The notes: generated from the sequence alone by a model not told the origin. A DNA stretch of 32,000 bases from Candidatus Epulonipiscium viviparus (GCF_030708075.1 NZ_CP117982.1:1183228-1215227), one strand, 5' to 3'. Shown: positions 6,276-32,000, counted from the first letter of the stretch. Numbers and translations are program-made.

Positions 6276-7613
6276 TTGAGTTTTAATGAAAAATGGAACT
6301 CGATACTTAAATTAGTAGAAATAGAAACATCATCTGTAAGCTTTAATACCTGGTTTAAACAAACAAAGTTATCTAATATTTCTGACGATACATTAACAAT
6401 AACCGTAAAAGATGATTTATCCAAAAGTATACTAAGCACCAGATATTTTGATCTTATTCGAACAAGTGCTGTAACTGTTTTAGATAAAAAATATAATCTT
6501 GAATTTATTATAAAAGAATCCAATCCACTATCAATAACTAAAATTGCCACCAATCGCATCGCTATCCAAGATCCACTTAATGCACCCTCTAATTTAAATC
6601 CAAAATATACCTTTAACTCATTTGTAGTTGGAAATAGTAATAGAATGGCTCATGCAGCAACAATGGCTGTTGCAAAAATGCCTGCTAAATCTTATAATCC
6701 ATTATTTCTCTATGGAGGGGTTGGACTGGGTAAAACACATCTTATGCAATCAATAGCACACTTTACACTTAAGCATCATCCAAACTTAAAAGTACTATAT
6801 ACTTCTACAGAAAAATTTACTAATGAATTAATAAATTCAATTCGCGATGACCAAAATAATGCCTTCAGAAATAAATATAGAAATATAGATATATTACTAA
6901 TAGATGATATTCAATTTATCGCCGGAAAAGAAAGAACACAAGAAGAATTTTTCCATACATTTAACACTCTTTATGAAGCCAATAAGCAAATTATCATATC
7001 TAGTGATCGTACACCAAAAGAAATAGAGTTTTTAGAATCTAGACTTCGCTCTAGATTTGAATGGGGATTAATAGCCGATTTACAACCCCCAGATTTAGAA
7101 ACTCGCATAGCAATACTAAAAAAAAAAGCAGAAATGGAAAATATCACAATTGATTCGAATGTATTGCAATTTATAGCGGAAACCATTATTTCTAATATAA
7201 GAGAACTAGAAGGAGCTCTAAATCGAATTATAGCATTTTCATCATTGTCAAACGAAACTATAAATTTAGAACTTACTGAAGAAGCCTTAAAAGATACTAT
7301 ATTATCAAAAGAATCTATTTCCATAATCACTCCTTCCTATATTCAAAGTATTGTAGCCATGACCTATAATATTACTATTTCTGAACTTTTATCAAGTAAA
7401 CGAGTAAGAACTATATCACGACCAAGGCAAATAGCAATGTATCTATGTAGAAAATTAACCAATTTGTCCCTCACAAAAATCGCTGAACAATTTGGAGGTA
7501 GAGATCACACCACCATTTTACATGGTTATGATAAAATAGCCAAAGAACTAGTTGAAGATGAACAACTCGCTTACTCCATCACCCAACTTGAACTCAAAAT
7601 TCTTCATTCATAA
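6276..7613 (+). CDS. dnaA: Chromosomal replication initiator protein DnaA
   Basis: A 445 aa ORF with Walker A GGVGLGKTHL, Walker B LLIDDIQF and a C-terminal DnaA-box binding domain (RPRQIAMYLCRKLT...GGRDHTTILHG). The start is TTG, preceded by AGGAGGA. Confidence 0.95.
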   Translation: MSFNEKWNSILKLVEIETSSVSFNTWFKQTKLSNISDDTLTITVKDDLSKSILSTRYFDLIRTSAVTVLDKKYNLEFIIKESNPLSITKIATNRIAIQDPLNAPSNLNPKYTFNSFVVGNSNRMAHAATMAVAKMPAKSYNPLFLYGGVGLGKTHLMQSIAHFTLKHHPNLKVLYTSTEKFTNELINSIRDDQNNAFRNKYRNIDILLIDDIQFIAGKERTQEEFFHTFNTLYEANKQIIISSDRTPKEIEFLESRLRSRFEWGLIADLQPPDLETRIAILKKKAEMENITIDSNVLQFIAETIISNIRELEGALNRIIAFSSLSNETINLELTEEALKDTILSKESISIITPSYIQSIVAMTYNITISELLSSKRVRTISRPRQIAMYLCRKLTNLSLTKIAEQFGGRDHTTILHGYDKIAKELVEDEQLAYSITQLELKILHS

Positions 7614-20063: not shown

Positions 20064-21302
20064 TTAAATATTTTCTGGAAGCACTTTATTTAAAATGACA
20101 CCAAACAATGCCGCAAGGGTAAGTCCAGAAACAGTGATAGTTTCGGTAATAGGAACATCGGTAACTCCAATGCCAATAACAAATATAACTGCAGCAATCA
20201 GTAAGTTTCTACTGTTCTTAAAATCTAATTGCTCTTCTACAAGAGTTCGTACGCCTACCGCAGAAATCATTCCAAATAATATAATGCTCACACCTCCCAT
20301 AACAGCCGATGGAATGAGCTGAACCATAGCGGTAAATTTTTCGCAAATGCTAAGCAAAATGGCAAAGATGGCCGCAATGCGAATTATTGAAGGGTCATAT
20401 ATTTTAGTAACAGCAAGAACGCCGGTATTTTCTCCGTATGTAGTATTTGCAGGCCCGCCAATAAGCCCCGCAGTCATAGTTGCTAAACCATCTCCCATAA
20501 GTGTTTTATGAATTCCGGGATCTTCAAAGAAGTTTTTGCCAACAACAGCTCCGTTAGTAGTAATATCTCCAATATGCTCTATAAATACAACTAAAGCAAT
20601 AGGAGCAAGCGCAATTGCCGCCGTAAGTCCTGCAGAAGAAAAGTCTGGAAGCGTTATAATACTTCTTAATGCGTTATCAGAAAATCCAAACCAACTAGCT
20701 TCAGCAACAGCAGATACATCTACCATATTCATTAAAAATGCAACTGCATATCCAATAATAACGGCAATTAATATTGGTACCATCTTGAAGAATCCCTTTG
20801 CGAATATAGAAACAATCATTACAGTAATGACTACTATCGACGCGACAAATGCATAATTGGGATTGATAGCTCCATCGACCTTTAACATATCAATCGCTGT
20901 AGGGCTCAAACGTAATCCGATAACCATAATGATAGGACCAATAACAATTGGAGGAAAAAATGATTTAACTTTTTCTACTCCAACATGTTTTATGATTATA
21001 TCCATCGCAATATAAACTAGCCCGGTTGCCATAATTCCAGTTTTTACCGCACCAATTCCAAATTGGTTAAGCGTAAGAGAGATTGCACTGATAAATGCAA
21101 AGCTGGAACCTAAGAATACTGGAACTATACCTTTGGTAACAGAGTGAAACACTAATGTTCCAATCCCTGCAGATAAAATTGCGACACCTGGATCCAAGCC
21201 AGTAAGCATAGGGACTAAAACGGTGGCACCAAACATAGCAAGAACGTGCTGTAAACCCAAAACAAGCTTCTGGGGAATACTAATTTTTTCTGGGGACGAC
21301 AT
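20064..21302 (-). CDS. uraA: Uracil/xanthine permease (NCS2 family)
   Basis: A multi-TM protein whose N-terminus (IPQKLVLGLQHVLAMFGATVLVPMLTG) is typical of uracil permeases. I chose the start at the ATG at 21302 (MSSPEK), preceded by GAGG. The track start at 21359 has no SD. Confidence 0.8.
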   Translation of the reverse strand: MSSPEKISIPQKLVLGLQHVLAMFGATVLVPMLTGLDPGVAILSAGIGTLVFHSVTKGIVPVFLGSSFAFISAISLTLNQFGIGAVKTGIMATGLVYIAMDIIIKHVGVEKVKSFFPPIVIGPIIMVIGLRLSPTAIDMLKVDGAINPNYAFVASIVVITVMIVSIFAKGFFKMVPILIAVIIGYAVAFLMNMVDVSAVAEASWFGFSDNALRSIITLPDFSSAGLTAAIALAPIALVVFIEHIGDITTNGAVVGKNFFEDPGIHKTLMGDGLATMTAGLIGGPANTTYGENTGVLAVTKIYDPSIIRIAAIFAILLSICEKFTAMVQLIPSAVMGGVSIILFGMISAVGVRTLVEEQLDFKNSRNLLIAAVIFVIGIGVTDVPITETITVSGLTLAALFGVILNKVLPENI

Positions 21303-21399
21303 AATATAAGACCTCGCTTTCGGTAAAAATATTTTGTATATTATATTCGGAGTAAACATATTTGATGTACTAGTAACTTCGACTCGAATAAAGAATGCA

Positions 21400-22825
21400 A
21401 AGTTACAAATTTCTGCAATACTAGCTGCCGAAGAAGAATTATTCTCATCATCTACTCGTAGTGTTGCAACAGAAGAGGCCTATGATGCATAAATAGCTAC
21501 GATAACAGTATCGCCTGATAATTTACCTTCGAATATAATTTAAAACGAAAAATGGGCCTGCAGGATTCGTTTTAGAAATATTAGCTGCCAAGGAATTTGC
21601 TGGAGGGGTTTTGATCTCGTCATCTAACCATAATGCCGAGCATGGTGTTGCAACAGAATAGGTTTACGATGCTGGAAGTTTTCATAATGACAGCTGCCGA
21701 AGAAGAATTATTCTCATCATCTAACCATAATGCAGAGCATAGTGTTGCAACAGAATAGGTTTACGATGCTGGAGGAGTTTTCATAATGACAGCTGCCGAA
21801 GAAGAATTATTCTCATCATCTAACTGTAATGCTGCCCGTAGTGTTGCAACAAAATAGGTTTACGATGCTGGAATAGTTTTCATAATGACAGCTGCCGAAG
21901 AAGAATTATTCTCATCATCTAACTGTAATGCTACCCGTAGTGTTGCAGCAGAAGAGGTCTATAATGCACAAAAAGCTACGATAACAGTATCGCCTGATAA
22001 TTTTACCTTCGAATATAATTTAAAACGAAAAATGAGCCTACTGGATTCGCTTCAGAAATATTAGCTGCCAAGGAATTTGCTGGAGGGGTTTCGATCTCGT
22101 CATCTAACCATAATGCTGAGCATGGTGTTGCAACAGAATAGGTTTACGATGCTGGAAGAGTTTTCATAATGACAGCTGCCGAAGAAGAATTATTCTCATC
22201 ATCTAACTGTAATGCTGCCCGTAGTGTTGCAGCAGAAGAGGCCTATAATGCATAAATAGCTACGATAACAGCATTGACTGATATTTTACCTTCGAATATA
22301 ATTTAAAACGAAAAATGAGCCTGCTGGATGCGCTTCAGAAATATTAGCTGCCGAGGAATTTGCTGGAGGGGTTTCGATCTCATCATCTAACCATAATGCC
22401 GAGCATGGTGTTGCAACAGAAGAGGCCTATGATGCATAAATAGCTACGATAACAGCATCGCCTGATATTTTACCTTCGAATATAATTTAAAACGAAAAAT
22501 GGGCCTGCAGAATTCGTTTTAGAAATATTAGCTGCCAAGGAATTTGCTGGAGGGGTTTCGATCTCATCATCTAACCATAATGCCGAGCATGGTGTTGCAA
22601 CAGAATAGGTTTACGATGCTGGAAGAGTTTTCATAATGACAGCTGCCGAAGAAGAATTATTCTCATCATCTAACTGTAATGCTACCCGTAGTGTTGCAGC
22701 AGAAGAGGCCTATGATGCACAAAAAGCCACGATAACAGTATCGCCTGATATTTTACCTTCGAATATAATTTAAAACGAAAAATGAGCCTGCTGGATGCGC
22801 TTCAGAAATATTAGCTGCCAACGAA
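21400..22825. repeat. Modular tandem-repeat array with no ORF of 60 aa or more on either strand
   Basis: The anchor motif agctgcc[g/a]a... recurs at 21423, 21583, 21692, 21791, 21890, 22063, 22174, 22346, 22530, 22641 and 22813. Each anchor is followed by a shared core (...tcatcta-ac..taatgc...gtgttgca.cag). The core is followed by either a short tail (aataggtttacgatgctggaag..ttttcataatgac) or a long tail (aagaggcctatgatgcataaatagctacgataacagtatcgcctgat...aaaacgaaaaatg...agaaatatt). The short tail gives units of 99-111 bp and the long tail units of 160-184 bp. Confidence 0.9.
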
Positions 22826-22919
22826 AAATAAAAATATAAACCGCTTATGTATTGCCATACTAGGGTAGAGGGCTACAGTACGAAAATAGCTGTGCCAATA
22901 GACCTCTTTGGTAAATGTA

Positions 22920-23306
22920 TTACAGTGGAATCTTACATTTTGGCATCAGCTGTTCAAAAGTATATACTTCATACTCTAGATTGCTATTCCCACAAATGAT
23001 TACAAAATTGTCATCGACAAAATCACTCATAACTTGTCGGCAGATTCCACACGGGTAAATGATCTTGTCACTATCGCTGATGATAGCAATTGTAGTAAAT
23101 TTGCGCTCCCCTTCTGTAATTGCCTTATAAAATGCTGTGCGCTCTGCACACGTTGTGACTCCATAAGATGCTCCCTCTACATTAGCTCCTAGGTATACTG
23201 TCCCCGATGCCCCAAGGAGAGCGGCTCCAACGTGAAAATTTGAATAGTTAGCATAGGAAAACTTTTTTGCCTTTTCGGCTTGCTTCAATAATTCTAAATA
23301 ATCCAT
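22920..23306 (-). CDS. cdd: Cytidine deaminase
   Basis: A 128 aa ORF with zinc-binding motifs CAERTAF and PCGICRQVM. AAGGAG lies upstream. Confidence 0.9.
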   Translation of the reverse strand: MDYLELLKQAEKAKKFSYANYSNFHVGAALLGASGTVYLGANVEGASYGVTTCAERTAFYKAITEGERKFTTIAIISDSDKIIYPCGICRQVMSDFVDDNFVIICGNSNLEYEVYTFEQLMPKCKIPL

Positions 23307-23539
23307 AGTAGTCTCCTTCTCAAATTAAATTGCAATACTAGTTTATCCGACAATTACATCTATTATCCATTTGGCATTAACGATAATTTCTATTTTGCAT
23401 CAATGATAGTTGTATGCTACACTCAAATTGAGTTGGATTGCTATAGCGATTTCGGAAGCAAGATTTACGAGCATTGCCTATCATCTCATATGCTGTTTTC
23501 GTATTTCTCAAATCCATTAAGTATTTTGTAATTTTACAC

Positions 23540-23570
23540 AAAAAAAAGATACCCAAATAAATGAGTATCT
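23540..23570 (-). terminator. Intrinsic terminator after rpsI
   Basis: On the minus strand, the stem AGATAC / GTATCT has a 12-nt loop and is followed by T8. Confidence 0.7.
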
Positions 23571-23583
23571 CGGTTTGAAATAA

Positions 23584-23976
23584 TTATCTCTTTGAAAATT
23601 GAGGAGCACGTCTTGCCGCTTTGAGCCCGTATTTCTTTCTTTCTTTCATTCTAGGGTCACGTGTTAAGAATCCTGCTTTTTTTAGTGTAAGTCTATAATC
23701 ACCATCTGCTTGAAGAAGCGCGCGGCTTACTCCATGACGAATCGCTCCAGCTTGTCCAGAAACTCCTCCTCCATGAACATTTACTAAAACATCAAACTTA
23801 ATTGTTGTGCCAGTAAGTTCCAGCGGTTGCTTTACTATTAATTTTAAAGTATCAAGCCCAAAATAGTCGTCCATTTCTCTTTTGTTAATTACAATTTTTC
23901 CATTTCCTGGTGTAAGATACACTCGTGCAACAGAGCTTTTTCTTCTGCCAGTTCCATAATATTTTACCTTTGCCAT
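23584..23976 (-). CDS. rpsI: 30S ribosomal protein S9
   Basis: A 130 aa ORF starting [19 protein letters not shown] and ending ...RRAPQFSKR, which is canonical S9. Confidence 0.96.
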
Positions 23977-23994
23977 TTGACTGTTCTCCCTCCG

Positions 23995-24426
23995 TTAAAA
24001 TTTAAGTTCTTTAGGCTGTTGTGCTTCGTGGTTATGCTCAGTTCCCGCATATATTCTAACATTTGTAAGAAGCTTTCTACCTAGACTATTTTTTGGAAGC
24101 ATCCCTTTTATAGCGTGCATCAGAACTCTCTCAGGGTGTCTTTGTAACATGTCTTTTGCGGCAACTTCTTTAAGACCTCCAGCATATCCTGTATGATGTC
24201 TATAAAGTTTTTGTTCTAGTTTTTTGCCTGTAAATACAACTTCTTCTGCGTTTATAATTATTACGTGATCTCCGCAGTCTACGTGTGGGGTAAATGTTGG
24301 TTTATGCTTGCCTCGTAGTACCATAGCTACTTGACTTGCTAAACGGCCAACAGTTTGCCCCGCAGCGTCAACTATGAACCATTCTTTTTGCACGTTTTGC
24401 GCATTGGCCATAAATGTAGTTCTCAT
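23995..24426 (-). CDS. rplM: 50S ribosomal protein L13
   Basis: A 143 aa ORF containing [16 protein letters not shown]...[14 protein letters not shown], which is canonical L13. Confidence 0.96.
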
Positions 24427-24574
24427 CGATTTTCTCCTTTTATATTAATATCTGTAATTTATTTCGTATCATCATAAGCAAGTTTTCGATACACCCACAA
24501 AGGTGAACGTATTCTCGCTATCTTCTTATAAAATCCGGGGCGTTGGATTTTAAAAAGTGGTTTTTTGCATTCAG

Positions 24575-24604
24575 ATTATAATTCAGCAATATTATAATTG
24601 TCAA
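24575..24604 (-). promoter_or_regulatory. Consensus sigma-A promoter for rplM-rpsI, followed by a leader of about 140 nt (possible L13 autoregulatory leader)
   Basis: On the minus strand, the -35 TTGACA is at 24604..24599, then an 18-bp spacer, then the -10 TATAAT at 24580..24575. The leader contains the hairpin AAAATCC-N8-GGATTTT. Assignment as an L13 leader is by analogy only. Confidence 0.6.
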
Positions 24605-24633
24605 GGCTCAGAACATAAAGTCACTGAAAAACT

Positions 24634-25407
24634 TTAGTTAATATCGATAATTTGTTTAGCGCTAGATGATACGGCCTTAGAAATTGTAGGCGCAAGATAT
24701 CGGTCAATATTGTCCATCGCCTGGCTGGTAATCTGATTAATATTATTGCTAAGACTGGTAATATCATTACTCATCGTTTTTATAAATTGGTCCGCATTAT
24801 CGATGATGCCAATAAGTTGCTTCTCAACAGAATTTTCCAAAATCTCACGAGCACGGCTGCCATCTGGAAAGCGCGCCTCCAAGTCGGCTAACCTACAAAC
24901 AGCAGATTCATAGGCTTCGTTTTGTAAGTTTAGATACGCCTTAGTCCTCTCTTCGGCTAGCCTATGTGCATGGTCCATCAACGCAATAGACATCTGCCCA
25001 ATGCTATCTGCTAGTATCACAGACGCTTCTCCCAAATCATGCTGATATTTCTTTAGTGCCTCGATAGATTGCGCTTGATACTTAAGCTCGTTCTGAGAAA
25101 TAAGTTCAGTTAGCTCTAAATTAAATCGACGCATATTCACATCTTGCTCATCCTGTCGCGAATGCATTTCTATGTCAAAAGCAATCTGATTTTCTCTAAT
25201 CTGTTCTTCCTTATTTTTCTTTACCATATCAAGCTCAGCCTGCATGGAATTAATATGATGCTGCAACTCCAGCATAGAGCGGTCATGTTTCGCATTGCGT
25301 TCGCGTAGAGGCTGGCGCAGTACGTCACAAATTAGGTTTACAGGAACAAAAATAATATCATCCAATTTATCAAACATTCCAAATATACGTGATATATTTA
25401 CTTTCAT
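24634..25407 (-). CDS. Hypothetical all-helical/coiled-coil protein (257 aa), last gene of the GTPase operon
   Basis: The ORF has an ATGA start/stop overlap with the upstream gene. The sequence is rich in Q/E/L/N heptad-like stretches (ELQHHINSMQAELDMVKKNKEEQIRENQ; NDITSLSNNINQITSQAMDNI). I saw no TM segment, signal peptide or recognisable catalytic motif. Confidence 0.7.
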   Translation of the reverse strand: MKVNISRIFGMFDKLDDIIFVPVNLICDVLRQPLRERNAKHDRSMLELQHHINSMQAELDMVKKNKEEQIRENQIAFDIEMHSRQDEQDVNMRRFNLELTELISQNELKYQAQSIEALKKYQHDLGEASVILADSIGQMSIALMDHAHRLAEERTKAYLNLQNEAYESAVCRLADLEARFPDGSRAREILENSVEKQLIGIIDNADQFIKTMSNDITSLSNNINQITSQAMDNIDRYLAPTISKAVSSSAKQIIDIN

Positions 25408-25865
25408 AAGATCTCCTCTTTCTGTGTTAATTTTTTGAGCTCTCGATCTAAAATTTTATTTTCTTTAATCAGTTTAATTTGTAGTTTTTTTAAATTAGTT
25501 TCCCATTCTTCGTTTTGATTAATAAGAGTACGAAGTGCTTGAAGTTGCTCTTCCACAAAGTTTAGACTCATAGAAGAATCTCTCCAGCTATTGGCAAAGC
25601 GATGGAGATGCTCCGCAAATAGTGTAGTAAATTTTGGTCGATCTTCAGAAGAAAATTTTTTTAGTTGCAGCAAAAACTCATCGTAATGACTCTTAAGCCA
25701 CTCCAATTCATAAACTTTTGTTCTAATATAATATATTTCACTTTCCAAATCACTATATAAGGCAGAGTAAATGTTGGGGTTCGAATTTAACACACCCTCA
25801 ATAAACTCCTGGCGGCATTGGCTGGTGATCTCTAAAGCCGATAAATAGTATTTATCATCGATCAT
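25404..25865 (-). CDS. Hypothetical helical protein (153 aa), GTPase operon
   Basis: The ORF has a strong SD (GAGGGAGGGA) 12 nt after the upstream stop. The C-terminal coiled-coil-like stretch reads LKKLQIKLIKENKILDRELKKLTQKEE. No motif is recognised. Confidence 0.7.
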   Translation of the reverse strand: MIDDKYYLSALEITSQCRQEFIEGVLNSNPNIYSALYSDLESEIYYIRTKVYELEWLKSHYDEFLLQLKKFSSEDRPKFTTLFAEHLHRFANSWRDSSMSLNFVEEQLQALRTLINQNEEWETNLKKLQIKLIKENKILDRELKKLTQKEEIL

Positions 25866-25877
25866 AAATCCCTCCCT

Positions 25878-26255
25878 CTATACAATGCTTTTTAGTGTGT
25901 TTTGCACTAGTCGTTTAAATTCATCTAGCTTTTTTATTGAGTAATCATTAAGTAGAGTTTCTGTCAGTGCAAAGCTACGTTCAATATTATTTGCAAATCT
26001 ATTCATAAACACTTTTTTCATTTCTTGATCAATTGCTTCGGCGTCCAATTTTGCACTCACATTTGGAAGAATTTTACTAAAAAAATCTATTTGCTCTTGT
26101 CGAAATTCTTTCAATTTTCTATCTATAAAATCTATTTCAGGAGAATGCTTTTTTAGCAGCTCCAAATAATGCTTCTCATATTCATATAGTAATTGAAGCG
26201 AGGTGTTTTCGCTTGCGAGTGAATCATTAGTGCCGAATTTATCAAATGCTTTCAT
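25878..26255 (-). CDS. Hypothetical helical protein (125 aa), GTPase operon
   Basis: The ORF has an SD (AAGAAAGAGG), and the composition predicts an all-alpha protein. No motif is recognised. Confidence 0.65.
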   Translation of the reverse strand: MKAFDKFGTNDSLASENTSLQLLYEYEKHYLELLKKHSPEIDFIDRKLKEFRQEQIDFFSKILPNVSAKLDAEAIDQEMKKVFMNRFANNIERSFALTETLLNDYSIKKLDEFKRLVQNTLKSIV

Positions 26256-26275
26256 TAATAATGCCTCTTTCTTAT

Positions 26276-26659
26276 TTATCTCTTTTGTATTATCTCTTTG
26301 TGTATTTTATTTAAATGTATTTTGGCTGTTTCCTCTCCGTTAACAAGTATTTGCGCATAGTTTATATCGATATTAAATGCTTGATTTATTAATATCGCAT
26401 TTGCAATAGCAGTCCGAAGCTCTATCAAAAAATGTTTGCTCTGAGTCTGGAAAATTAAATTTTGCTTGTCTTTAGATGTATATAAAGGCAGAACCAACTT
26501 AAGTTTTAAAATTTTGTGATAGAGATCTAAATCAACAGTAACATTGAAATTACAGTTGCTATTACACTTCCTAAGCCAGCCACGATTAATACTGGCCGCA
26601 ATATATTTTCGGAAACCGATAATGGTTTTTTTTTTGCATCTCCAATAATTCTGTTTCAA
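26276..26659 (-). CDS. Frame-shifted 3' segment, most likely the C-terminal part of the gene starting at 27419
   Basis: The 127-codon ORF has no ATG anywhere; the track start is a TTG with no SD. It overlaps the upstream ORF by 74 nt, and the overlap contains an A10 tract (26626..26635). Removing one A fuses the two frames. Confidence 0.5.
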   Translation of the reverse strand: MKQNYWRCKKKTIIGFRKYIAASINRGWLRKCNSNCNFNVTVDLDLYHKILKLKLVLPLYTSKDKQNLIFQTQSKHFLIELRTAIANAILINQAFNIDINYAQILVNGEETAKIHLNKIHKEIIQKR

Positions 26660-27419
26660 TACGGGCAGGGGGAGCTACAGTTGTTATCGTTGGTTCCAAA
26701 GGTTCCGAAATTTCCGAGACTGGTGGCTCTTTTAACCTGCTAAGTATATTGCTAGAAGTAGAGATGATATAATTTGTATCCTGATCATAGAGCTGCTCAA
26801 TGCGTTTAGCACTGGTAATATCCGTGCAAAGCGTAAAATTAGCATCTTCAGACAAGCTAAAGTATCGTATTAATTCTGCATTACAGTCTGATGCGTATAA
26901 AGCAGTATTATGAAATGTATGGGTGGGGACAGGATAGTTTTTCGTTGTTGCCGTTGCTTCAAAGTCTAACGAGCCAAAGGGTACTTCGATAGTGCTGTTG
27001 GTGTTTGTTTCCCATACAGCGGTTAAATATTTAATATATATTTCTAACAGAAATTCATTCGTAATTTTTTCGAAATCGAAAGCGGAGCTTTTGTGGATCA
27101 CTATGCCAATAAAGGCATAAATTCGTCTGTTTTTTTCGTCTTTCAAAAATTTGGCAGCAGAATCTGTAATAAATTGATTGCAGTTCTGTGCAAGGTTCGC
27201 AATATAATCAGCTGCCCCAATGATTTTATACTCACCATCAGGACTGCTGCTAATTAACCATCTTCTTTCCGATAACGTTTCTATAGAACTTGTCGCAAGT
27301 AAAATGTTTCGTCTGGCCCATTGGATCTCAGCAGTGTTCCAGTTCGCAGGACGTACCATAAAATTAGGGTTGAAGTCACACTTAAAAGTTCTGCTATGGA
27401 TAAGATATGCTATTTCCAA
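26586..27419 (-). CDS. Hypothetical protein, second gene of the GTPase operon (5' segment if the gene is split at the A10 tract)
   Basis: I favour the TTG start at 27419, which lies 7 nt after GAGGGGGA and 19 nt after the GTPase stop. The alternative ATG at 27482 would overlap the GTPase gene by 44 nt. There is no recognisable motif. The protein is probably mixed alpha/beta, with a Pro/Glu-rich linker (KEPPVSEISEPLEPTITTVAPPA) just before the frame junction. Confidence 0.6.
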   Translation of the reverse strand: MEIAYLIHSRTFKCDFNPNFMVRPANWNTAEIQWARRNILLATSSIETLSERRWLISSSPDGEYKIIGAADYIANLAQNCNQFITDSAAKFLKDEKNRRIYAFIGIVIHKSSAFDFEKITNEFLLEIYIKYLTAVWETNTNSTIEVPFGSLDFEATATTKNYPVPTHTFHNTALYASDCNAELIRYFSLSEDANFTLCTDITSAKRIEQLYDQDTNYIISTSSNILSRLKEPPVSEISEPLEPTITTVAPPARIETELLEMQKKNHYRFPKIYCGQY

Positions 27420-27438
27420 TTTAATTCCCCCTCGTCTT

Positions 27439-28542
27439 TTATAATAAAAGCTGAAATTCGGTAAATGATTTTTCGATACCATTTATAAATAGCGGTAAAT
27501 TGGCATTCAGTTCTTCTAGAAGCGTTTGCTGATTTAAATGTAAAGACTGTATTTGCTGGTCCGTTTCGGTTATAGCTTTATCTATTGTAAATATTTCGTG
27601 ATTAACTTGATTGATATTTTTTGAAGCTGACGTTAATGCATTTTTCATTTCGTGGATTTTATTATTTTTATGAAGCGCTAAGAAAGAATTTTCTAATTTA
27701 TTTTTTTGCGCAGTATATTGTAAACGAAGATCATTCCATTTATCAAGCTCAAGCAAAAGTTTGGCTTTTGCTTCTTGGTTTTTATTTTGATACGCAGTTA
27801 GCTCCTTGAGTTTCCTAGTCAAAGCACAATATATTCCCATAAAGATCGGAAGATGCATATTTAGCAGTTGTGGAGCATCTTTTTCGTCTTCGAGATTAAG
27901 TCCAATTGATATAGGAATTATAGAAACGATGCTGGGTGGTGCAGTGTTTAAAAATAACGGTGTATATGCCGCCTTAACTATATTAAATAATTCTGCCGTA
28001 GAAATTGTTCCCGCGCATTTATCAAATTTGGTAATCACAAGGGCGATCGGTGGTAATGTCTGGTTTCCTTTTTGAAACTTAGAAATAAAATTGTTAATAG
28101 TTTTAGAATCATTTTTGATGTTGCGTATTTTTTGATCTTGAGTATCAGCGATTAAAGTATCGCCATCAATGCAAATAAATAAACAGCTAGAACTATTTAA
28201 AGACTCGATAAAATTGCTATACTCCAAACTGTCTCCAGAATTTTTGGTTTCTAAAATTCCTCCAGCATAATCAAGCCAATCAAAAGATAATATATTTTTA
28301 TAGCCATATTGAAAATCAAATTTAAAGTTAGAGCTGCTATCTGTTCCAGGAGGAAACCGATCGGGTCCCAACGAAAAATCAAGCATCCTATTATATCTTT
28401 TGCGAAGCTCAACGTCATCGTCATCGTCTGCAAGTATAGTGTAACCTTCAAATCCGGAACACATCTCATAATACATTCCAAGCAAGTAACACGTTTTGCC
28501 TGCACCTGTCATTCCTAAAATCGTAAATTTTGTATCTGCCAT
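27439..28542 (-). CDS. P-loop GTPase (TRAFAC-type motifs) with a C-terminal coiled-coil domain, first gene of the operon
   Basis: In this 367 aa ORF, G1 is G10-MTGAGKT-17 and the G3 candidate is hydrophobic-D91-YAG94. G4 is T171-KFD-174 ([NT]KxD, implying guanine specificity), and a switch-I Thr candidate lies in PPGTDSS. Residues about 240-345 are heptad-rich (KELTAYQNKNQEAKAKLLLELDKWNDLRLQYTAQKNKLEN...). AAGGAG lies 7 nt upstream of the ATG. Confidence 0.8.
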   Translation of the reverse strand: MADTKFTILGMTGAGKTCYLLGMYYEMCSGFEGYTILADDDDDVELRKRYNRMLDFSLGPDRFPPGTDSSSNFKFDFQYGYKNILSFDWLDYAGGILETKNSGDSLEYSNFIESLNSSSCLFICIDGDTLIADTQDQKIRNIKNDSKTINNFISKFQKGNQTLPPIALVITKFDKCAGTISTAELFNIVKAAYTPLFLNTAPPSIVSIIPISIGLNLEDEKDAPQLLNMHLPIFMGIYCALTRKLKELTAYQNKNQEAKAKLLLELDKWNDLRLQYTAQKNKLENSFLALHKNNKIHEMKNALTSASKNINQVNHEIFTIDKAITETDQQIQSLHLNQQTLLEELNANLPLFINGIEKSFTEFQLLL

Positions 28543-28574
28543 TCTGATACTCCTTATTGTTTAAATATAAAATT

Positions 28575-28603
28575 ATTTTAATGGCAAAGTATAAAATAGT
28601 CAA
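28575..28603 (-). promoter_or_regulatory. Sigma-A-type promoter of the GTPase operon
   Basis: On the minus strand, the -35 TTGACT is at 28603..28598, then a 17-bp spacer, then the -10 TAAAAT at 28580..28575. The -10 lies about 33 nt upstream of the ATG. Confidence 0.55.
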
Positions 28604-28799: not shown

Positions 28800-31271
28800 A
28801 TGAAAAAAAGACTAACACTAGGATTAATGATGACAACACTGATGCTTGGTATTACAGGTTGTGCAAACGAAAACAATGTAGTTCAATCAAGTGCCAATGT
28901 CGATAATATAACAAAAGTGGAAAAGCCAAAACCTACAGTAAAAACAGGATCAAAAACTACTATAAAAGAAGAAATAGGGGCTAGTGAGGAGGAGCAAGGG
29001 ACTGAAATTGCAATTATACATACCAATGATATTCACTGCGCTATAGAAAAAAATATGGGTTATGCAGGTGTTTCTGCATTTAAAAATGAAATGAATACAT
29101 TGTATGGAGAAGAAAATGTAGTTCTTGTTGACGCTGGAGACGCTATACAAGGTGGCCCAATAGGAAAGCTCACTCAAGGAGAAGCTATAGTAAATATAAT
29201 GAATGAAGTAGGATACGATGTCTTTGTTCTTGGTAACCATGAATTCGACTATCAAATTCCACGCCTACTAGAACTAATGGATAAGATGGAAGCTGCGGTC
29301 ATTTCAAGTAACTTTATAGATATTGAAAAAGACATGCCCGTCTTTAAAGCCTATACAATGACAACCCATGGAGACACTAATATAGCCTACGTGGGTGCCA
29401 CAACTCCAGAAACTTTTACCAAATCAACTCCCGCATATTTTCAAAATGAAAAAGGTGAGTATATATACGACCTAAGCGAAGGTAAAAATGGCCAAGAATT
29501 ATATGATAGAGTTCAAAGTGCTGTAGACGAAGCTATTAAAGCAGGGGCCGATTATATTGTTGCACTTGTTCATCTTGGCATCGATAAAGGAAGCGCGCCT
29601 TGGCGATCTACAGACTTAATCACTAATACAACCGGAATTGATATTGTTATTGACGGGCACTCACACTCTGTTATATATGGAGAAACCGTGAAAAACGCAA
29701 TAGGTGAAGAGGTAATTTTAACTCAAGCCGGAACCAAGTTTGATGCCATAGGAAAAATTATAATCGACACAGCCACAGATGAAATAGAAGCCACGGTGAT
29801 TCCGAACTACGACAAAAAAGATGAACGTATTCAAAATTTTATTGCTGGAATAAACGAAGAGTTCGATGAGCTTTTAAATCAAGTAGTGGCAACTTCAAGC
29901 GTACATCTCGCAACCATCGATCCCAAAACCAAAATGAGAATTATAAGAAATAACGAAACTAACTTAGGTGACCTCGTAACAGATGCCTATAGAAGTATTC
30001 TCGAAACTGATATAGCTTTGGTAAATGCTGGTGGAATCAGAGCCGATATTGAAGCCGGAGAAATCACAAATGAAGAAATAATCAATGTCCATCCTTGGGG
30101 CAATGCTGCAGTAGAAGTAGAAGTAACTGGCCAAACAATTCTAGATGCACTAGAAATGGGAGCAAAGAATATGCCTGATGAAAGTGGCGGATTTCTGCAC
30201 GTATCTGGATTAACATATTCCATCGATACCACTATTCCATCAGCAGTGACAGTAAACGATAAAGGAGAATTTTTATCTGTCGATGGCGCGTATCGAGTAA
30301 AAGATGTTTTTATCGGAGGAGAGCCCCTCAATCTAAACAAGTTATATTCTGTGGCATCGCATAATTACATGTTGCTATTATATGGAGATGGCATGACTAT
30401 GTTCAAGGATGCCAACGTGATTCGAGAAGATGTTATGGTCGATAACGAGGTGTTGATCAACTATATAACAAATAATTTAGGAGGAAATATCGTTGATGAA
30501 TATAGCGAAATCTATGGCGAAGGGCGCATCAAAATAATAACAGAAGCCAATAAAAATGATCAGTCAATAAATAAAACTGCGGATGTCATAGCTCTTGAAT
30601 CAGCGAATATCGAATCTCCGGAATTAGTAATACTTACAGATGAAGTGACCAATATCGCTGCGCTTGAATTATTGGAAGAAGATGGTGCGCTAGCCGAAGA
30701 AGCTGAAGATTTCGTTGCGCTTGAATCAGCGAATATCGAATCTCCGGAATTAGTAATACTTACAGATGAAGTGGCCGATGTCGTTGCGCTTGAATTATTG
30801 GAAGAAGATGGTGCGCTAGCCGAAGAATCTGCCAATGTCGTTGCGCTTGAATCAGCGGAAATCGAAGTTCTTACAACAGAAGAATTAGTACTACTTACAG
30901 ATGAAGTGGCACCGGTAGCCGAAGAAGCTGCCAATGTTGTTGCGCTTGAATCAGCGAATATCGAATCTCCGGAATTAGTAATACTTACAGATGAAGTGAC
31001 CAATATCGCTGCGCTTGAATTATTGGAAGAAGATGGTGCGCTAGCCGAAGAAGCTGAAGATTTCGTTGCGCTTGAATCAGCGAATATCGAATCTCCGGAA
31101 TTAGTAATACTTACAGATGAAGTGGCCGATGTCGTTGCGCTTGAATTATTGGAAGAAGATGGTGCGCTAGCCGAAGAATCTGCCAATGTCGTTGCGCTTG
31201 AATCAGCGGAAATCGAAGTTCCGGTTACAACAGAAGAATTAGTACTACTACAGATGAAGTGGCACCGGTAG
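28800..31271 (+). CDS. Lipoprotein bifunctional metallophosphatase/5'-nucleotidase with an acidic C-terminal tandem-repeat region (reading frame as called)
   Basis: The signal peptide has a lipobox (LMLGITG-C). Calcineurin-like motifs are IHTNDIHC, GDAIQGG, GNHEFD and DGHSH. The 5'-nucleotidase C-terminal domain is marked by NETNLGDLVTDA and NAGGIRADI. From about residue 595 the protein consists of acidic repeats. The ORF ends through a 1-nt frame break, not a natural-looking terminus. Confidence 0.85.
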   Translation: MKKRLTLGLMMTTLMLGITGCANENNVVQSSANVDNITKVEKPKPTVKTGSKTTIKEEIGASEEEQGTEIAIIHTNDIHCAIEKNMGYAGVSAFKNEMNTLYGEENVVLVDAGDAIQGGPIGKLTQGEAIVNIMNEVGYDVFVLGNHEFDYQIPRLLELMDKMEAAVISSNFIDIEKDMPVFKAYTMTTHGDTNIAYVGATTPETFTKSTPAYFQNEKGEYIYDLSEGKNGQELYDRVQSAVDEAIKAGADYIVALVHLGIDKGSAPWRSTDLITNTTGIDIVIDGHSHSVIYGETVKNAIGEEVILTQAGTKFDAIGKIIIDTATDEIEATVIPNYDKKDERIQNFIAGINEEFDELLNQVVATSSVHLATIDPKTKMRIIRNNETNLGDLVTDAYRSILETDIALVNAGGIRADIEAGEITNEEIINVHPWGNAAVEVEVTGQTILDALEMGAKNMPDESGGFLHVSGLTYSIDTTIPSAVTVNDKGEFLSVDGAYRVKDVFIGGEPLNLNKLYSVASHNYMLLLYGDGMTMFKDANVIREDVMVDNEVLINYITNNLGGNIVDEYSEIYGEGRIKIITEANKNDQSINKTADVIALESANIESPELVILTDEVTNIAALELLEEDGALAEEAEDFVALESANIESPELVILTDEVADVVALELLEEDGALAEESANVVALESAEIEVLTTEELVLLTDEVAPVAEEAANVVALESANIESPELVILTDEVTNIAALELLEEDGALAEEAEDFVALESANIESPELVILTDEVADVVALELLEEDGALAEESANVVALESAEIEVPVTTEELVLLQMKWHR

Positions 31272-32000
31272 CCGAAGAAGCTGCCAATGTCGTTGCGCTT
31301 GAATCAGCGGAAATCGAAGTTCCGGTTACAACAGAAGAATTAGTACTACTAGAAATCACAGATGAAGTGGCACCAGTAGCCGAAGAATCTGCCAATGTCG
31401 TTGCGCTTGAACTAGCGGAAATCGAAGTTCCGGTACAACAGAAGAATTAGTACTACTAGAAATCACAGATGAAGCGACACCAGTAGCCGAAGAAGCTGAA
31501 GATGTCGTTGCGCTTGAATTATTGGAAGAAGATGGTGCGCTCGTAGAAGAAGCGGAAGATTTCGTTGCGCTTGAACTAGCGAATATCGAATCTCCGGAAT
31601 TAGTAATACTTACAGATGAAGTGACCGAAATCGCTGCGCTTGAATTATTGGAAGAAGCATGGTGGCACTAGTAGAAGAAGCTGAAGATTTCGTTGCGCTT
31701 GAATCAGCGAATATCGAATCTCCGGAATTAGTAATACTTACAGATGAAGTGACCGATGTCGTTGCGCTTGAATCAGCGGAAATCGAATCTCCGGAATTAG
31801 TAATACTTGCAGATGAAGTGGCACCGGTAGCTGAAGAATCTGCCAATGTCGTTGCGCTTGAACTAGCGGAAATCGAAGTTCCAGTTACAACAGAAGAATT
31901 AGTACTACTAGAAATCACAGATGAAGTGGCACCGGTAGCCGAAGAATCTGCCAATGTCGTTGCGCTTGAACTAGCGGAAATCGAAGTTCCGGTTACAACA
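30591..32000 (+). repeat. Coding tandem repeats of acidic ~13-40 aa motifs, organised into a 351-bp higher-order unit and continuing past the window end
   Basis: The motifs are ALESANIESPELVILTDEV..., ALELLEEDGALAEEAEDFV and ALESAEIEVPVTTEELVLL(EI)TDEVAPVAEE. The segment starting at 30597 is repeated at 30948, identical by eye over about 270 bp. Confidence 0.9.
31251..32000 (+). pseudogene. Continuation of the nucleotidase repeat region in shifted frames (disrupted gene or assembly error)
   Basis: The same acidic repeat peptides can be read in other frames after breaks near 31250, 31434 and 31657-31668. The final segment is open to position 32000. Confidence 0.55.

Follow-up and report, generated by a model that had tools for sequence, protein, structure and literature searches.

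A candidate membrane-tethered GTPase system encoded by a conserved five-gene operon of Candidatus Epulonipiscium viviparus

Main finding

The stretch of DNA analysed here (the window) comprises 32,000 nucleotides (nt) of the Candidatus Epulonipiscium viviparus chromosome (GCF_030708075.1, NZ_CP117982.1:1183228-1215227), and the subject of the analysis is a compact minus-strand operon within it, with genes for a GTPase (g1), its partner protein (g2), and three smaller proteins (g3, g4, and g5). As judged from comparative sequence analysis, the g1-g2-g3-g4-g5 string is a genuine conserved system. With middling confidence, the operon is read as encoding a GTPase switch that is tethered to the membrane and belongs to a horizontally mobile accessory system of a conflict or anti-phage kind. 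An initial annotation, made from the window sequence, had proposed that a GTPase switch and its coiled-coil partners form either a conflict or defence module or a machine for assembly or membrane remodelling. This idea gained from the DO-GTPase2 homology, the mobile carriage, and the Eleos-like neighbours described below, but the anatomy of the operon had been misread.

Conservation and distribution of the cassette

The comparison covered 54 loci, which were collected by contig look-ups and by a scan of 185,579 species representatives. The scan was pattern-limited, and the counts are thus lower bounds. The cassette was found in at least 46 of the 185,579 representatives. The order g1-g2-g3-g4-g5, followed with iterated hidden Markov models, was kept in about 28 of the 54 loci and the g1-g2 pair in nearly all of them, so the neighbours that had been grouped around the GTPase are retained in other genomes. 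No confident match to a characterised pathway was obtained with Pfam, NCBIfam, PADLOC, PHROGs, or PDB sequence and fold searches. The initial statement that the set matches no known operon stands as far as characterised pathways are concerned, but g1 reaches the threshold of DO-GTPase2, a class predicted in 2020.

The five-gene loci belonged to Lachnospiraceae, Selenomonadaceae/Quinella, Ruminococcus, and Oscillospiraceae, and to bins labelled Bacteroides, Veillonella, and Succinimonas. Across phyla, the distribution of the family is patchy. Two to four GTPase paralogues were present in several relatives (L006, L019, L034, L035, L041, L045, and a Calothrix plasmid). Two GTPases were encoded in L006 and L019, both from Selenomonadaceae/Quinella, and filamentous and pleurocapsalean cyanobacteria had 2-4 paralogues of the GTPase and two of g2 but lacked g3-g5. 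In E. fishelsonii, the pair was kept, but different small coiled-coil/zinc-ribbon genes followed g2.

The cassette of Ca. Epulonipiscioides saccharophilum occupies the same site, upstream of rplM-rpsI-cdd-permease. A recent accessory insertion in Epulopiscium, if this was what the initial annotation intended, is contradicted by the shared position in the sister species. Between the two species, the identity was 46-48% for g2, 51% for g4, about 59% for the GTPase, 61% for g5, and 72% for g3, in comparison with 93% for rplM and rpsI. The cassette proteins (46-72%) hence diverge faster than the ribosomal proteins beside them.

The GTPase g1

The g1 product carries the motifs G1 GxxGxGKT (K16), G3 DYxGG (D91), and G4 TKxD (D174). 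Across 29 homologues (alignment A1), the invariant or nearly invariant residues were G10, G15, K16, and T17 of G1, R62, F63, P64, and T67 of an RFPxGTD motif, D91, Y92, and G94 of G3, and T171, K172, and D174 of G4. Guanine specificity is indicated by the TKxD motif. The AlphaFold2 model built from the 29-homologue alignment (predicted local distance difference test, pLDDT, 89.8) consists of a G domain (residues 1-229), two antiparallel helices of about 55 residues each (230-284 and 292-348), and a small beta-hairpin. Motifs and model agree with the P-loop GTPase with K16 in G1, D174 in G4, and a long helical C-terminus that had been annotated, and this combination argues for a TRAFAC GTPase that is specific for GTP and has a stalk formed by a helical hairpin.

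The match of g1 to Pfam family PF19993 (DO-GTPase2) was marginal, with 27.1 bits against a gathering cut-off of 27.0 (E 3.9e-6, residues 7-178). Many g1 homologues have precomputed PF19993 matches, which are often flagged weak or faint. Foldseek returned only generic TRAFAC GTPases (Nog1, EngA/Der, Obg, and G-alpha; E >= 3e-4), and the best full-length overlap was with mitofusin-2 (TMq 0.41). The PDB sequence-profile search gave no relative of g1, and its PADLOC, NCBIfam, and PHROGs matches were coiled-coil noise.

Some homologues are extended by other domains. An N-terminal phosphotransferase system (PTS) EIIA(Glc) domain was present in many GTPases of Selenomonadaceae/Quinella (P0076-P0120, e.g. 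P0093 and P0118; L006:1074-2609); of the two GTPases in L006, the longer one bears it. A few others were fused to HPr or acyl-carrier protein (P0058/P0078 and P0081). These fusions suggest either that the GTPase receives a metabolic or phosphorylation signal or that the extra domain is an integrated decoy.

The membrane-anchored partner g2

When one A is added to the A10 tract at 26626-26635, g2 is read as a protein of 297 amino acids (aa) that finishes in a C-terminal transmembrane helix and ends ...MQKKKPLSVSENILRPVLIVAGLGSVIATVISMLLLI*. The intact g2 of E. saccharophilum (316 aa) aligns with this tail up to the final residue. Orthologues in five-gene loci were 267-332 aa long, and most of them end in a C-terminal transmembrane helix flanked or preceded by Lys residues. 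In two respects the initial annotation is overturned by this form: the repaired gene was expected to give about 380 aa, with an extension in frame B that no homologue has, and none of the open reading frames (ORFs) was thought to contain a transmembrane segment. In the A11 form of g2, an alpha/beta domain of 230 aa is followed by a disordered linker and the C-terminal anchor, and the protein is predicted to be tail-anchored. As the Lys residues precede the helix, the positive-inside rule would place the globular domain in the cytoplasm.

A profile search yielded 81 homologues of g2, all named hypothetical, and no Pfam family was found in the 79 homologues scanned. Among 1.84 billion cluster representatives, the family numbered 782 members at E <= 1e-3 and 527 at E <= 1e-10, all unannotated. 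The residues R10, D15, F16, P24, R53, D94, R98, F103, G105, and W136 were invariant. One natural single-chain fusion (P0288, 693 aa) has the g2 domain at 118-372 followed by the GTPase at 373-631, which is strong evidence that g1 and g2 would work as a complex.

The AlphaFold2 model of g2, built from 79 sequences, had a pLDDT of 88.9 and a predicted template modelling score (pTM) of 0.83, and showed two alpha/beta subdomains (1-132 and 144-230), after which the linker was modelled with low confidence. The best PDB matches in Foldseek were structures of TagF, a post-translational regulator of type VI secretion systems (T6SS) (9t0n, E 1.3e-3; 6iz8; 2qnu; probability 0.54-0.99), with TM-scores of only 0.24-0.33. 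Weaker matches were Nprl of GATOR1 (probability 0.41-0.54), a Lokiarchaeal Roadblock-Longin protein (0.15), and a Ragulator subunit. Foldseek against viral structures gave no match. With TM-scores of about 0.3, the TagF/longin likeness of the model is a lead and not a classification. No text on a link between TagF and longin/DENN domains was found in the literature, and the longin reading of g2 is therefore one drawn from fold-search matches. Matches to PARP2 in the PDB profile search fell in the low-complexity linker and were rejected as not meaningful.

The same matches could indicate that g2 is a TagF-like regulator or accessory of a contractile-injection, secretion, or polymorphic-toxin locus, restraining the machine until the GTPase releases it. 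Besides the structural ranking of TagF, this is favoured by one gut metagenome lineage (L004:4842-16670 and L005), in which an Imm11 immunity gene, a gene of the VgrG type (Phage_GPD/Phage_base_V), and genes for large unknown proteins surround the GTPase-g2 pair. That association represents a single genomic context on two near-identical contigs, no secretion or injection genes occur in the window or in the other five-gene loci, and low TM-scores coincide with the lack of a TagF Pfam match. Such a role at an injection, secretion, or toxin locus is thus considered very improbable.

Two side observations concern the g2 family. An apparent second, degenerate g2-like domain is located at the N-terminus of P0274, P0309, and P0313. 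The cyanobacterial paralogues (L034, L035, L041, L044, and L045; P0126-P0201) share an acidic/aromatic C-terminus, ...FGFK.K...(D/S)W(F/EL), and are flanked by a conserved AAA ATPase gene, two unknown genes, and genes for CHAT/TPR/kinase proteins.

Length variation of the poly-A tract in g2

The window was compared with three further assemblies (L057, L058, and L059), whose contigs were 99.6-99.8% identical over 4.1-4.4 kb, and tract lengths were read from the assembled consensus sequences. Four lengths were observed. With A10, as in the reference window, g2 has 277 aa from the TTG start and no anchor. The A11 allele of L057 (SRR9425185; P0340) encodes exactly the 297-aa anchored protein. In L058 (SRR23598208; P0339), A12 fuses g2 to frame B, giving 399 aa, or about 378 aa from the TTG start. 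The A13 allele of L059 (SRR23598209) returns to the truncated frame with one extra Lys (278 aa from the TTG start). Apart from the tract, L058 and L059 differ only by four single-nucleotide polymorphisms and one 9-nt indel. None of the nine other 7-8 nt homopolymers in the shared region differed in length among the four assemblies. The 90%-identity cluster of the reference g2 contained products of 318, 399, and 258 aa, which derive from independent assemblies of public runs.

Frameshifts at the equivalent poly-A, just 5' of the transmembrane codons, were also found in Lachnoanaerobaculum L013 (A11; L013:11811), Selenomonadaceae L022 (A10; L022:11758) and L024 (A6; ~11850), and Oscillospiraceae L033 (A9; L033:4295), and each time the transmembrane helix was readable in another frame. 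At least 10 intact orthologues retain an in-frame A9-A10 at this spot. The A-runs arise before the helix because of the Lys codons there. An alternative C-terminus, '...EVK', that appeared conserved in L022 and L024 was rejected as a case of dual coding, as it is the g3 Shine-Dalgarno sequence read in frame (GAGGTGAAA). The only other homopolymer of at least 9 nt in the 32 kb is an A10 in dnaA (7118-7127), which is in frame and leaves the gene undisrupted.

As in homopolymer contingency loci, the g2 tract is intragenic, is at least 9 nt long, varies in length among near-identical strains, and alters the frame. Taken with the frameshifts in other genera, the variation points to a phase switch as a possibility, with three states of the membrane anchor (anchored, soluble, and fused). 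The variation may be selected phase variation, or the tract may be a mutational and technical hot spot.

A further explanation is that the cassette is a decaying, non-functional relic in E. viviparus, and that the tract varies by neutral slippage or sequencing noise in a pseudogene. The reference allele indeed lacks the anchor, homopolymers are error-prone, and frameshifts recur at runs of Lys codons, which are natural in AT-rich genomes. Decay is hard to reconcile with the state of the other genes, which retain unbroken frames and ribosome-binding sites at 99.6-99.8% conservation across the four assemblies, or with the A11 allele, which encodes a complete ancestral g2. The nine shorter homopolymers are invariant, and conservation of the proteins, invariant residues included, extends from genus to genus. 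The reference genome, a PacBio assembly corrected with Illumina reads, has only six pseudogenes (PMC10756260). A relic is accordingly regarded as improbable.

The proteins g3, g4, and g5

The g3-g5 products are low in Pro+Gly (2-3.5%) and rich in helix-forming residues (>51%). This composition supports the three all-helical proteins of the initial annotation, whose fold is still a prediction. They represent soluble families with conserved aromatic and charged positions, and in profile-profile comparison g1 to g5 were mutually unrelated. The three accompany the g1-g2 pair as a set trio, in whose place other lineages have two dynamin-like GTPases and an HSP70-like ATPase, or additional paralogues of the GTPase and g2. 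Pfam gave no match for g3, g4, or g5 at E <0.01, and the PDB sequence-profile search no relative of g3 or g4. For g5, only weak PDB matches to four-helix-bundle FAT domains were obtained (E ~1e-3), which would reflect, at this weak level, a helical-bundle similarity.

The ORF in frame B (26276-26659), initially counted as part of gene 2, was rejected as a conserved gene: no homologue was detected in the 54 loci and no ribosome-binding site precedes it. The ORF that occupies this place in E. saccharophilum is not significantly similar to it (197 of 2000 shuffles scored as high), and frame B is joined to g2 only in the A12 allele.

Despite the tight packing elsewhere in the operon, many loci have a variable spacer of 0.1-0.4 kb after g2 (e.g. 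window 26256-26526, L056:1426-1803, L006:4374-4541, and L007:10043-10352). The spacers hold unrelated small ORFs, such as the 127-codon frame B in the window, one of 125 aa in E. saccharophilum, and one of 55 aa in Quinella. In E. saccharophilum, a partial g4 N-terminus (43 aa; L056:2264-2395) and a partial g3 C-terminus (55 aa; L056:2661-2828) lie between g3 and g4, which suggests that this part of the locus was duplicated or rearranged, or else misassembled.

Mobility, defence context, and dynamin-linked operons

Homologues were located on three cyanobacterial plasmids, of which one, from Calothrix, is mobilizable and has the order GTPase-g2-GTPase-GTPase-g2 beside an AAA ATPase gene. In L007/L008, the cassette lies between helix-turn-helix regulators and an integrase gene, with ERF, RadC, DUF932, and PD-(D/E)XK genes near. 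In seven loci a DUF932 gene follows g5 at a distance of 0.3-0.6 kb, and an ERF recombinase gene is close by in five. The Pfam families that recurred most often in the 135 ORFs around 26 five-gene loci were DUF932, Mutator transposase, phage integrase, and ERF. In a few five-gene flanks, PADLOC detected type IIG and type IV restriction, MADS, and PbeA/AriA-like genes, and Abi genes occurred in some flanks. Within the window itself, no mobility genes were found, in line with the initial annotation.

Five Bacteroidales loci (L049-L053) and one Nostocales locus (L046) have a same-strand operon of abutting genes, unk379-dynamin-dynamin-HSP70-like-GTPase-g2. The Bacteroidales g2 carries a BACON domain in addition to the transmembrane helix. 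Among the flanking ORFs of the dynamin-type loci, the PADLOC models of Eleos were matched 9 times (LeoA) and 8 times (LeoBC). A two-dynamin system protects B. subtilis from jumbo phages in a manner dependent on the GTPase motif (bioRxiv 10.1101/2022.05.11.491447). The dynamin-containing operon would be an extended Eleos-like system, apparently undescribed.

Several points weigh against a mobile conflict system. In E. viviparus and E. saccharophilum, the cassette lies outside defence islands and mobile elements, at the same nucleotidase/rplM-rpsI site, and many other loci have plain housekeeping flanks. No homologue was present in 50,697 phage genomes, PADLOC-DB v2 gave only coiled-coil noise on the window proteins (E >= 0.08), and no toxic or enzymatic effector domain was recognisable in the cassette. 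The DO-GTPase link is a threshold-level score, the TagF and longin link has TM-scores of only about 0.3, and the differences in tract length could in part be amplification or assembly artefacts.

A non-defence, cell-biological module for membrane remodelling or envelope maintenance was also weighed, in which the pair recruits helical scaffolds, or dynamins in other taxa, to the membrane of large, filamentous, or internally compartmented bacteria. It might serve to repair the membrane, to form offspring inside the cell, or to organise membrane domains. Such a module would fit the stable synteny of E. viviparus and E. saccharophilum beside rplM-rpsI, an E. viviparus genome almost without mobile elements (PMC10756260), the giant or multicellular hosts (Epulopiscium, Quinella, Lachnoanaerobaculum, Nostocales, Pleurocapsales, and Thiotrichaceae), the dynamins and HSP70-like/actin-fold ATPases that are partners elsewhere, and the mitofusin-like architecture of g1. 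The occurrence in at least 46 of the species representatives is far too sparse and patchy for a core function, though, and carriage on plasmids and integrative elements, the frameshifted g2 of the reference E. viviparus and four other genera, and the swapping of downstream modules among close relatives, as with the small genes of E. fishelsonii, speak against it. A non-defence role is therefore held to be rather unlikely, and the anti-phage or conflict-type accessory system is retained as the preferred reading.

Proposed mechanism and significance

In the preferred reading, g2 would dock g1 on the inner face of the membrane and regulate its nucleotide cycle, as a GTPase-activating protein (GAP), a guanine nucleotide exchange factor (GEF), or a platform, like longin/roadblock partners. 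An infection or envelope cue could then flip the nucleotide state of g1, and the GTP-bound complex would drive the assembly of g3-g5 at the membrane, which would be protected or compromised as a result. The output module would be g3-g5 here, and dynamins with an HSP70-like ATPase in other lineages. In E. viviparus, the poly-A tract would set the state of g2, with A11 anchored, A10 and A13 truncated and soluble, and A12 fused to the downstream ORF, and this state might be a heritable on/off or altered condition of the system. The full scheme, in which the GTPase and a membrane-anchored longin/TagF-like platform form a hitherto unrecognised prokaryotic module that on infection brings scaffold or force-generating proteins (the trio, or dynamin pairs and HSP70-like ATPases) to the cytoplasmic membrane, and which in Epulopiscium is governed in three states by the poly-A tract, is offered tentatively.

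The cassette is compact (five small genes), its constant core is clear, and it is carried by Firmicutes that can be cultured, among them Lachnoanaerobaculum and Ruminococcus albus, which makes it a tractable entry to GTPase-centred conflict systems. Four unannotated protein families (g2, g3, g4, and g5) are defined, and the core pair is physically linked to Eleos-type dynamins. The natural allelic series A10-A13 toggles the g2 anchor in a bacterium that is giant and, with genome copies in the thousands, extremely polyploid. If g2 is longin/TagF-like, it would be a bacterial example of the GTPase-platform logic otherwise known from MglA-MglB and eukaryotic Rag/Rab regulators. If the pair recruits such proteins on infection, the system would represent a new mechanistic class of membrane-level anti-phage immunity.

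Operon layout and neighbouring genes

All ORFs of the initial annotation exist on the minus strand, and its compact spacing was reproduced, with intergenic gaps of 19, 20, and 12 nt and one ATGA overlap (g4/g5). A strong Shine-Dalgarno sequence precedes each of g1, g2, g3, g4, and g5. The sigma-A-like promoter proposed initially is present as a sequence match (Table 1), but such sites are not enriched: 17 were found in the window and 20.2 +/- 3.7 in shuffled sequence. The promoter is plausible only from its position. No terminator-like site was found between g5 and the rplM-rpsI promoter match, and Rfam and tRNA scans of the window detected nothing.

Table 1. Coordinates of the operon features in the window
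Feature	Position	Strand	Remarks
Promoter match TTGACT-17-TAAAAT, sigma-70-like	28575..28603	-	10/12 positions; 33 nt upstream of g1 start codon
g1, GTPase, 367 aa	27439..28542	-	TRAFAC GTPase; G domain, helical hairpin, and beta-hairpin
g2, GTPase partner	26527..27419	-	TTG start, GAGGGGG ribosome-binding site; 297 aa with A11
Reference g2 ORF (A10)	26586-27482/27419	-	Frame stops at 26586; 277 aa from TTG, no anchor
g2 poly-A tract (T10 on + strand)	26626..26635	-	Just 5' of g2 transmembrane codons
g2 transmembrane-helix segment VLIVAGLGSVIATVISMLLLI	26530..26592	-	Out of frame in reference; aligns with LIAVGLGSAILTALATIISLLI of intact E. saccharophilum g2
Doubtful frame-B ORF, 127 codons	26276..26659	-	Overlaps g2 3' end; occupies 271-nt g2-g3 spacer
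g3, 125 aa, predicted soluble helical	25878..26255	-	Same-position orthologues in 29 loci
g4, 153 aa, predicted soluble helical	25404..25865	-	No Pfam or PDB relative
g5, 257 aa, predicted soluble helical	24634..25407	-	N-terminal FGMFDKxDDIxYxP motif conserved; ATGA overlap with g4
rplM-rpsI promoter match TTGACA-18-TATAAT	24575..24604	-	Perfect match; downstream boundary

The window covers the chromosomal replication-origin region, with mnmG, mnmE, yidC, dnaA (6276-7613), dnaN, recF, gyrB, and gyrA, and the GC skew flips sign at about 8-9 kb. The operon lies about 20 kb from dnaA/oriC, between a repeat-rich gene for a surface 5'-nucleotidase-like protein (28800-) and rplM-rpsI-cdd-permease. 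The block at 20064-28603 (permease, cdd, rpsI, rplM, and the operon) runs against the presumed direction of replication. Transcription of ribosomal-protein genes against replication is unusual in Firmicutes.

Long imperfect tandem repeats with periods of 126, 225, 101, and 69 nt were found at 30583-31820, where they encode the C-terminal VALESANIESPELVILTDEV... region of the nucleotidase-like surface protein. The ORF breaks at 31271 and the repeats go on in other frames. The break may be a repeat-length or frameshift issue, or genuine variation.

Comparison with known systems

Phase-variable contingency loci, such as restriction-modification mod and surface-protein genes, resemble g2 in that an intragenic homopolymer, here of 10-13 nt, shifts the frame between near-identical strains. 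The g2 tract does not turn off the whole protein but swaps the C-terminus only (anchored, soluble, or fused). Switching at g2 is a prediction from assembled alleles.

Longin/roadblock domains are GAP or GEF platforms for GTPases. The N-terminal subdomain of the g2 model (beta-beta-alpha-beta-beta...beta-alpha) resembles those of MglB, Nprl2/3 of GATOR1, and Ragulator, g2 is a near-constant neighbour of a GTPase, and TagF structures are the best PDB matches of the model. In contrast to both groups, g2 is predicted to be tail-anchored in the membrane, and it has no sequence-level relation to either. Neither g2 nor its 79 homologues have a Pfam family. TagF acts without a GTPase, and no T6SS genes are present in the window; the partners of MglB and Ragulator are small Ras-like GTPases, which g1 is not.

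Eleos (Millman et al. 2022) is an anti-phage system of two genes, which encode the dynamin-like LeoA and LeoBC. Like Eleos, the cassette appears to be a GTPase-driven, membrane-associated accessory system, g1 combines a G domain with a helical stalk, and the GTPase-g2 pair is co-operonic with LeoA/LeoBC-like dynamins in Bacteroidales and one Nostocales locus. It differs in that the window has no dynamin gene, the six proteins match no Dynamin_N, LeoA, or LeoBC model, and g1 is half the size of a dynamin.

The remaining relatives are the DO-GTPase conflict systems, none of which has, to our knowledge, been tested experimentally. They were predicted computationally, and the GAP1-N2 type is the closest to the present cassette (Kaur, Burroughs, Iyer, Aravind, eLife 2020, PMC7159879). 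Such systems consist of one or two TRAFAC GTPases, a GAP1 protein, GASH or FNIII components, and variable effectors; the helical GASH protein is an N1-type component and the FNIII-repeat protein an N2-type one. The GTPases have a conserved Glu in Walker B, and the partner contains GAP1-N1 or GAP1-N2, GAP1-M, and GAP1-C domains. Two paralogous GTPases occur in 38% of the systems and N-terminal zinc ribbons in 60%, and the classical systems are reportedly almost absent from cyanobacteria (PMC7159879).

The present family departs from this description in several features. GAP1 domains were not found by Pfam in g2, 10 long orthologues, or 79 family members, and neither GASH nor FNIII was found in g3-g5 (Pfam) or among the top flank families. 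The window has a single GTPase, which begins at the P-loop strand and has no zinc ribbon. Its Walker B has an invariant Asp (D91, with G94), and no Glu is conserved there at >= 90%. The family is common in cyanobacteria, and the helical trio g3-g5 and the dynamin linkage are undescribed for DO-GTPase systems.

The similarities lie in the architecture. g1 is at the Pfam DO-GTPase2 threshold, and variable modules are combined with a constant pair of a GTPase and a downstream partner. In some members the two are fused into one protein, and the partner often has a C-terminal transmembrane helix, with an extracellular BACON domain in Bacteroidales. HSP70-type partners and two or three GTPase paralogues occur in relatives, and the hosts are biased to filamentous or multicellular forms. 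Because this GTPase and pair logic is shared but the other defining features fail, the cassette is filed as a probable sister branch or divergent variant of the predicted DO-GTPase kind, and not as a member of it.

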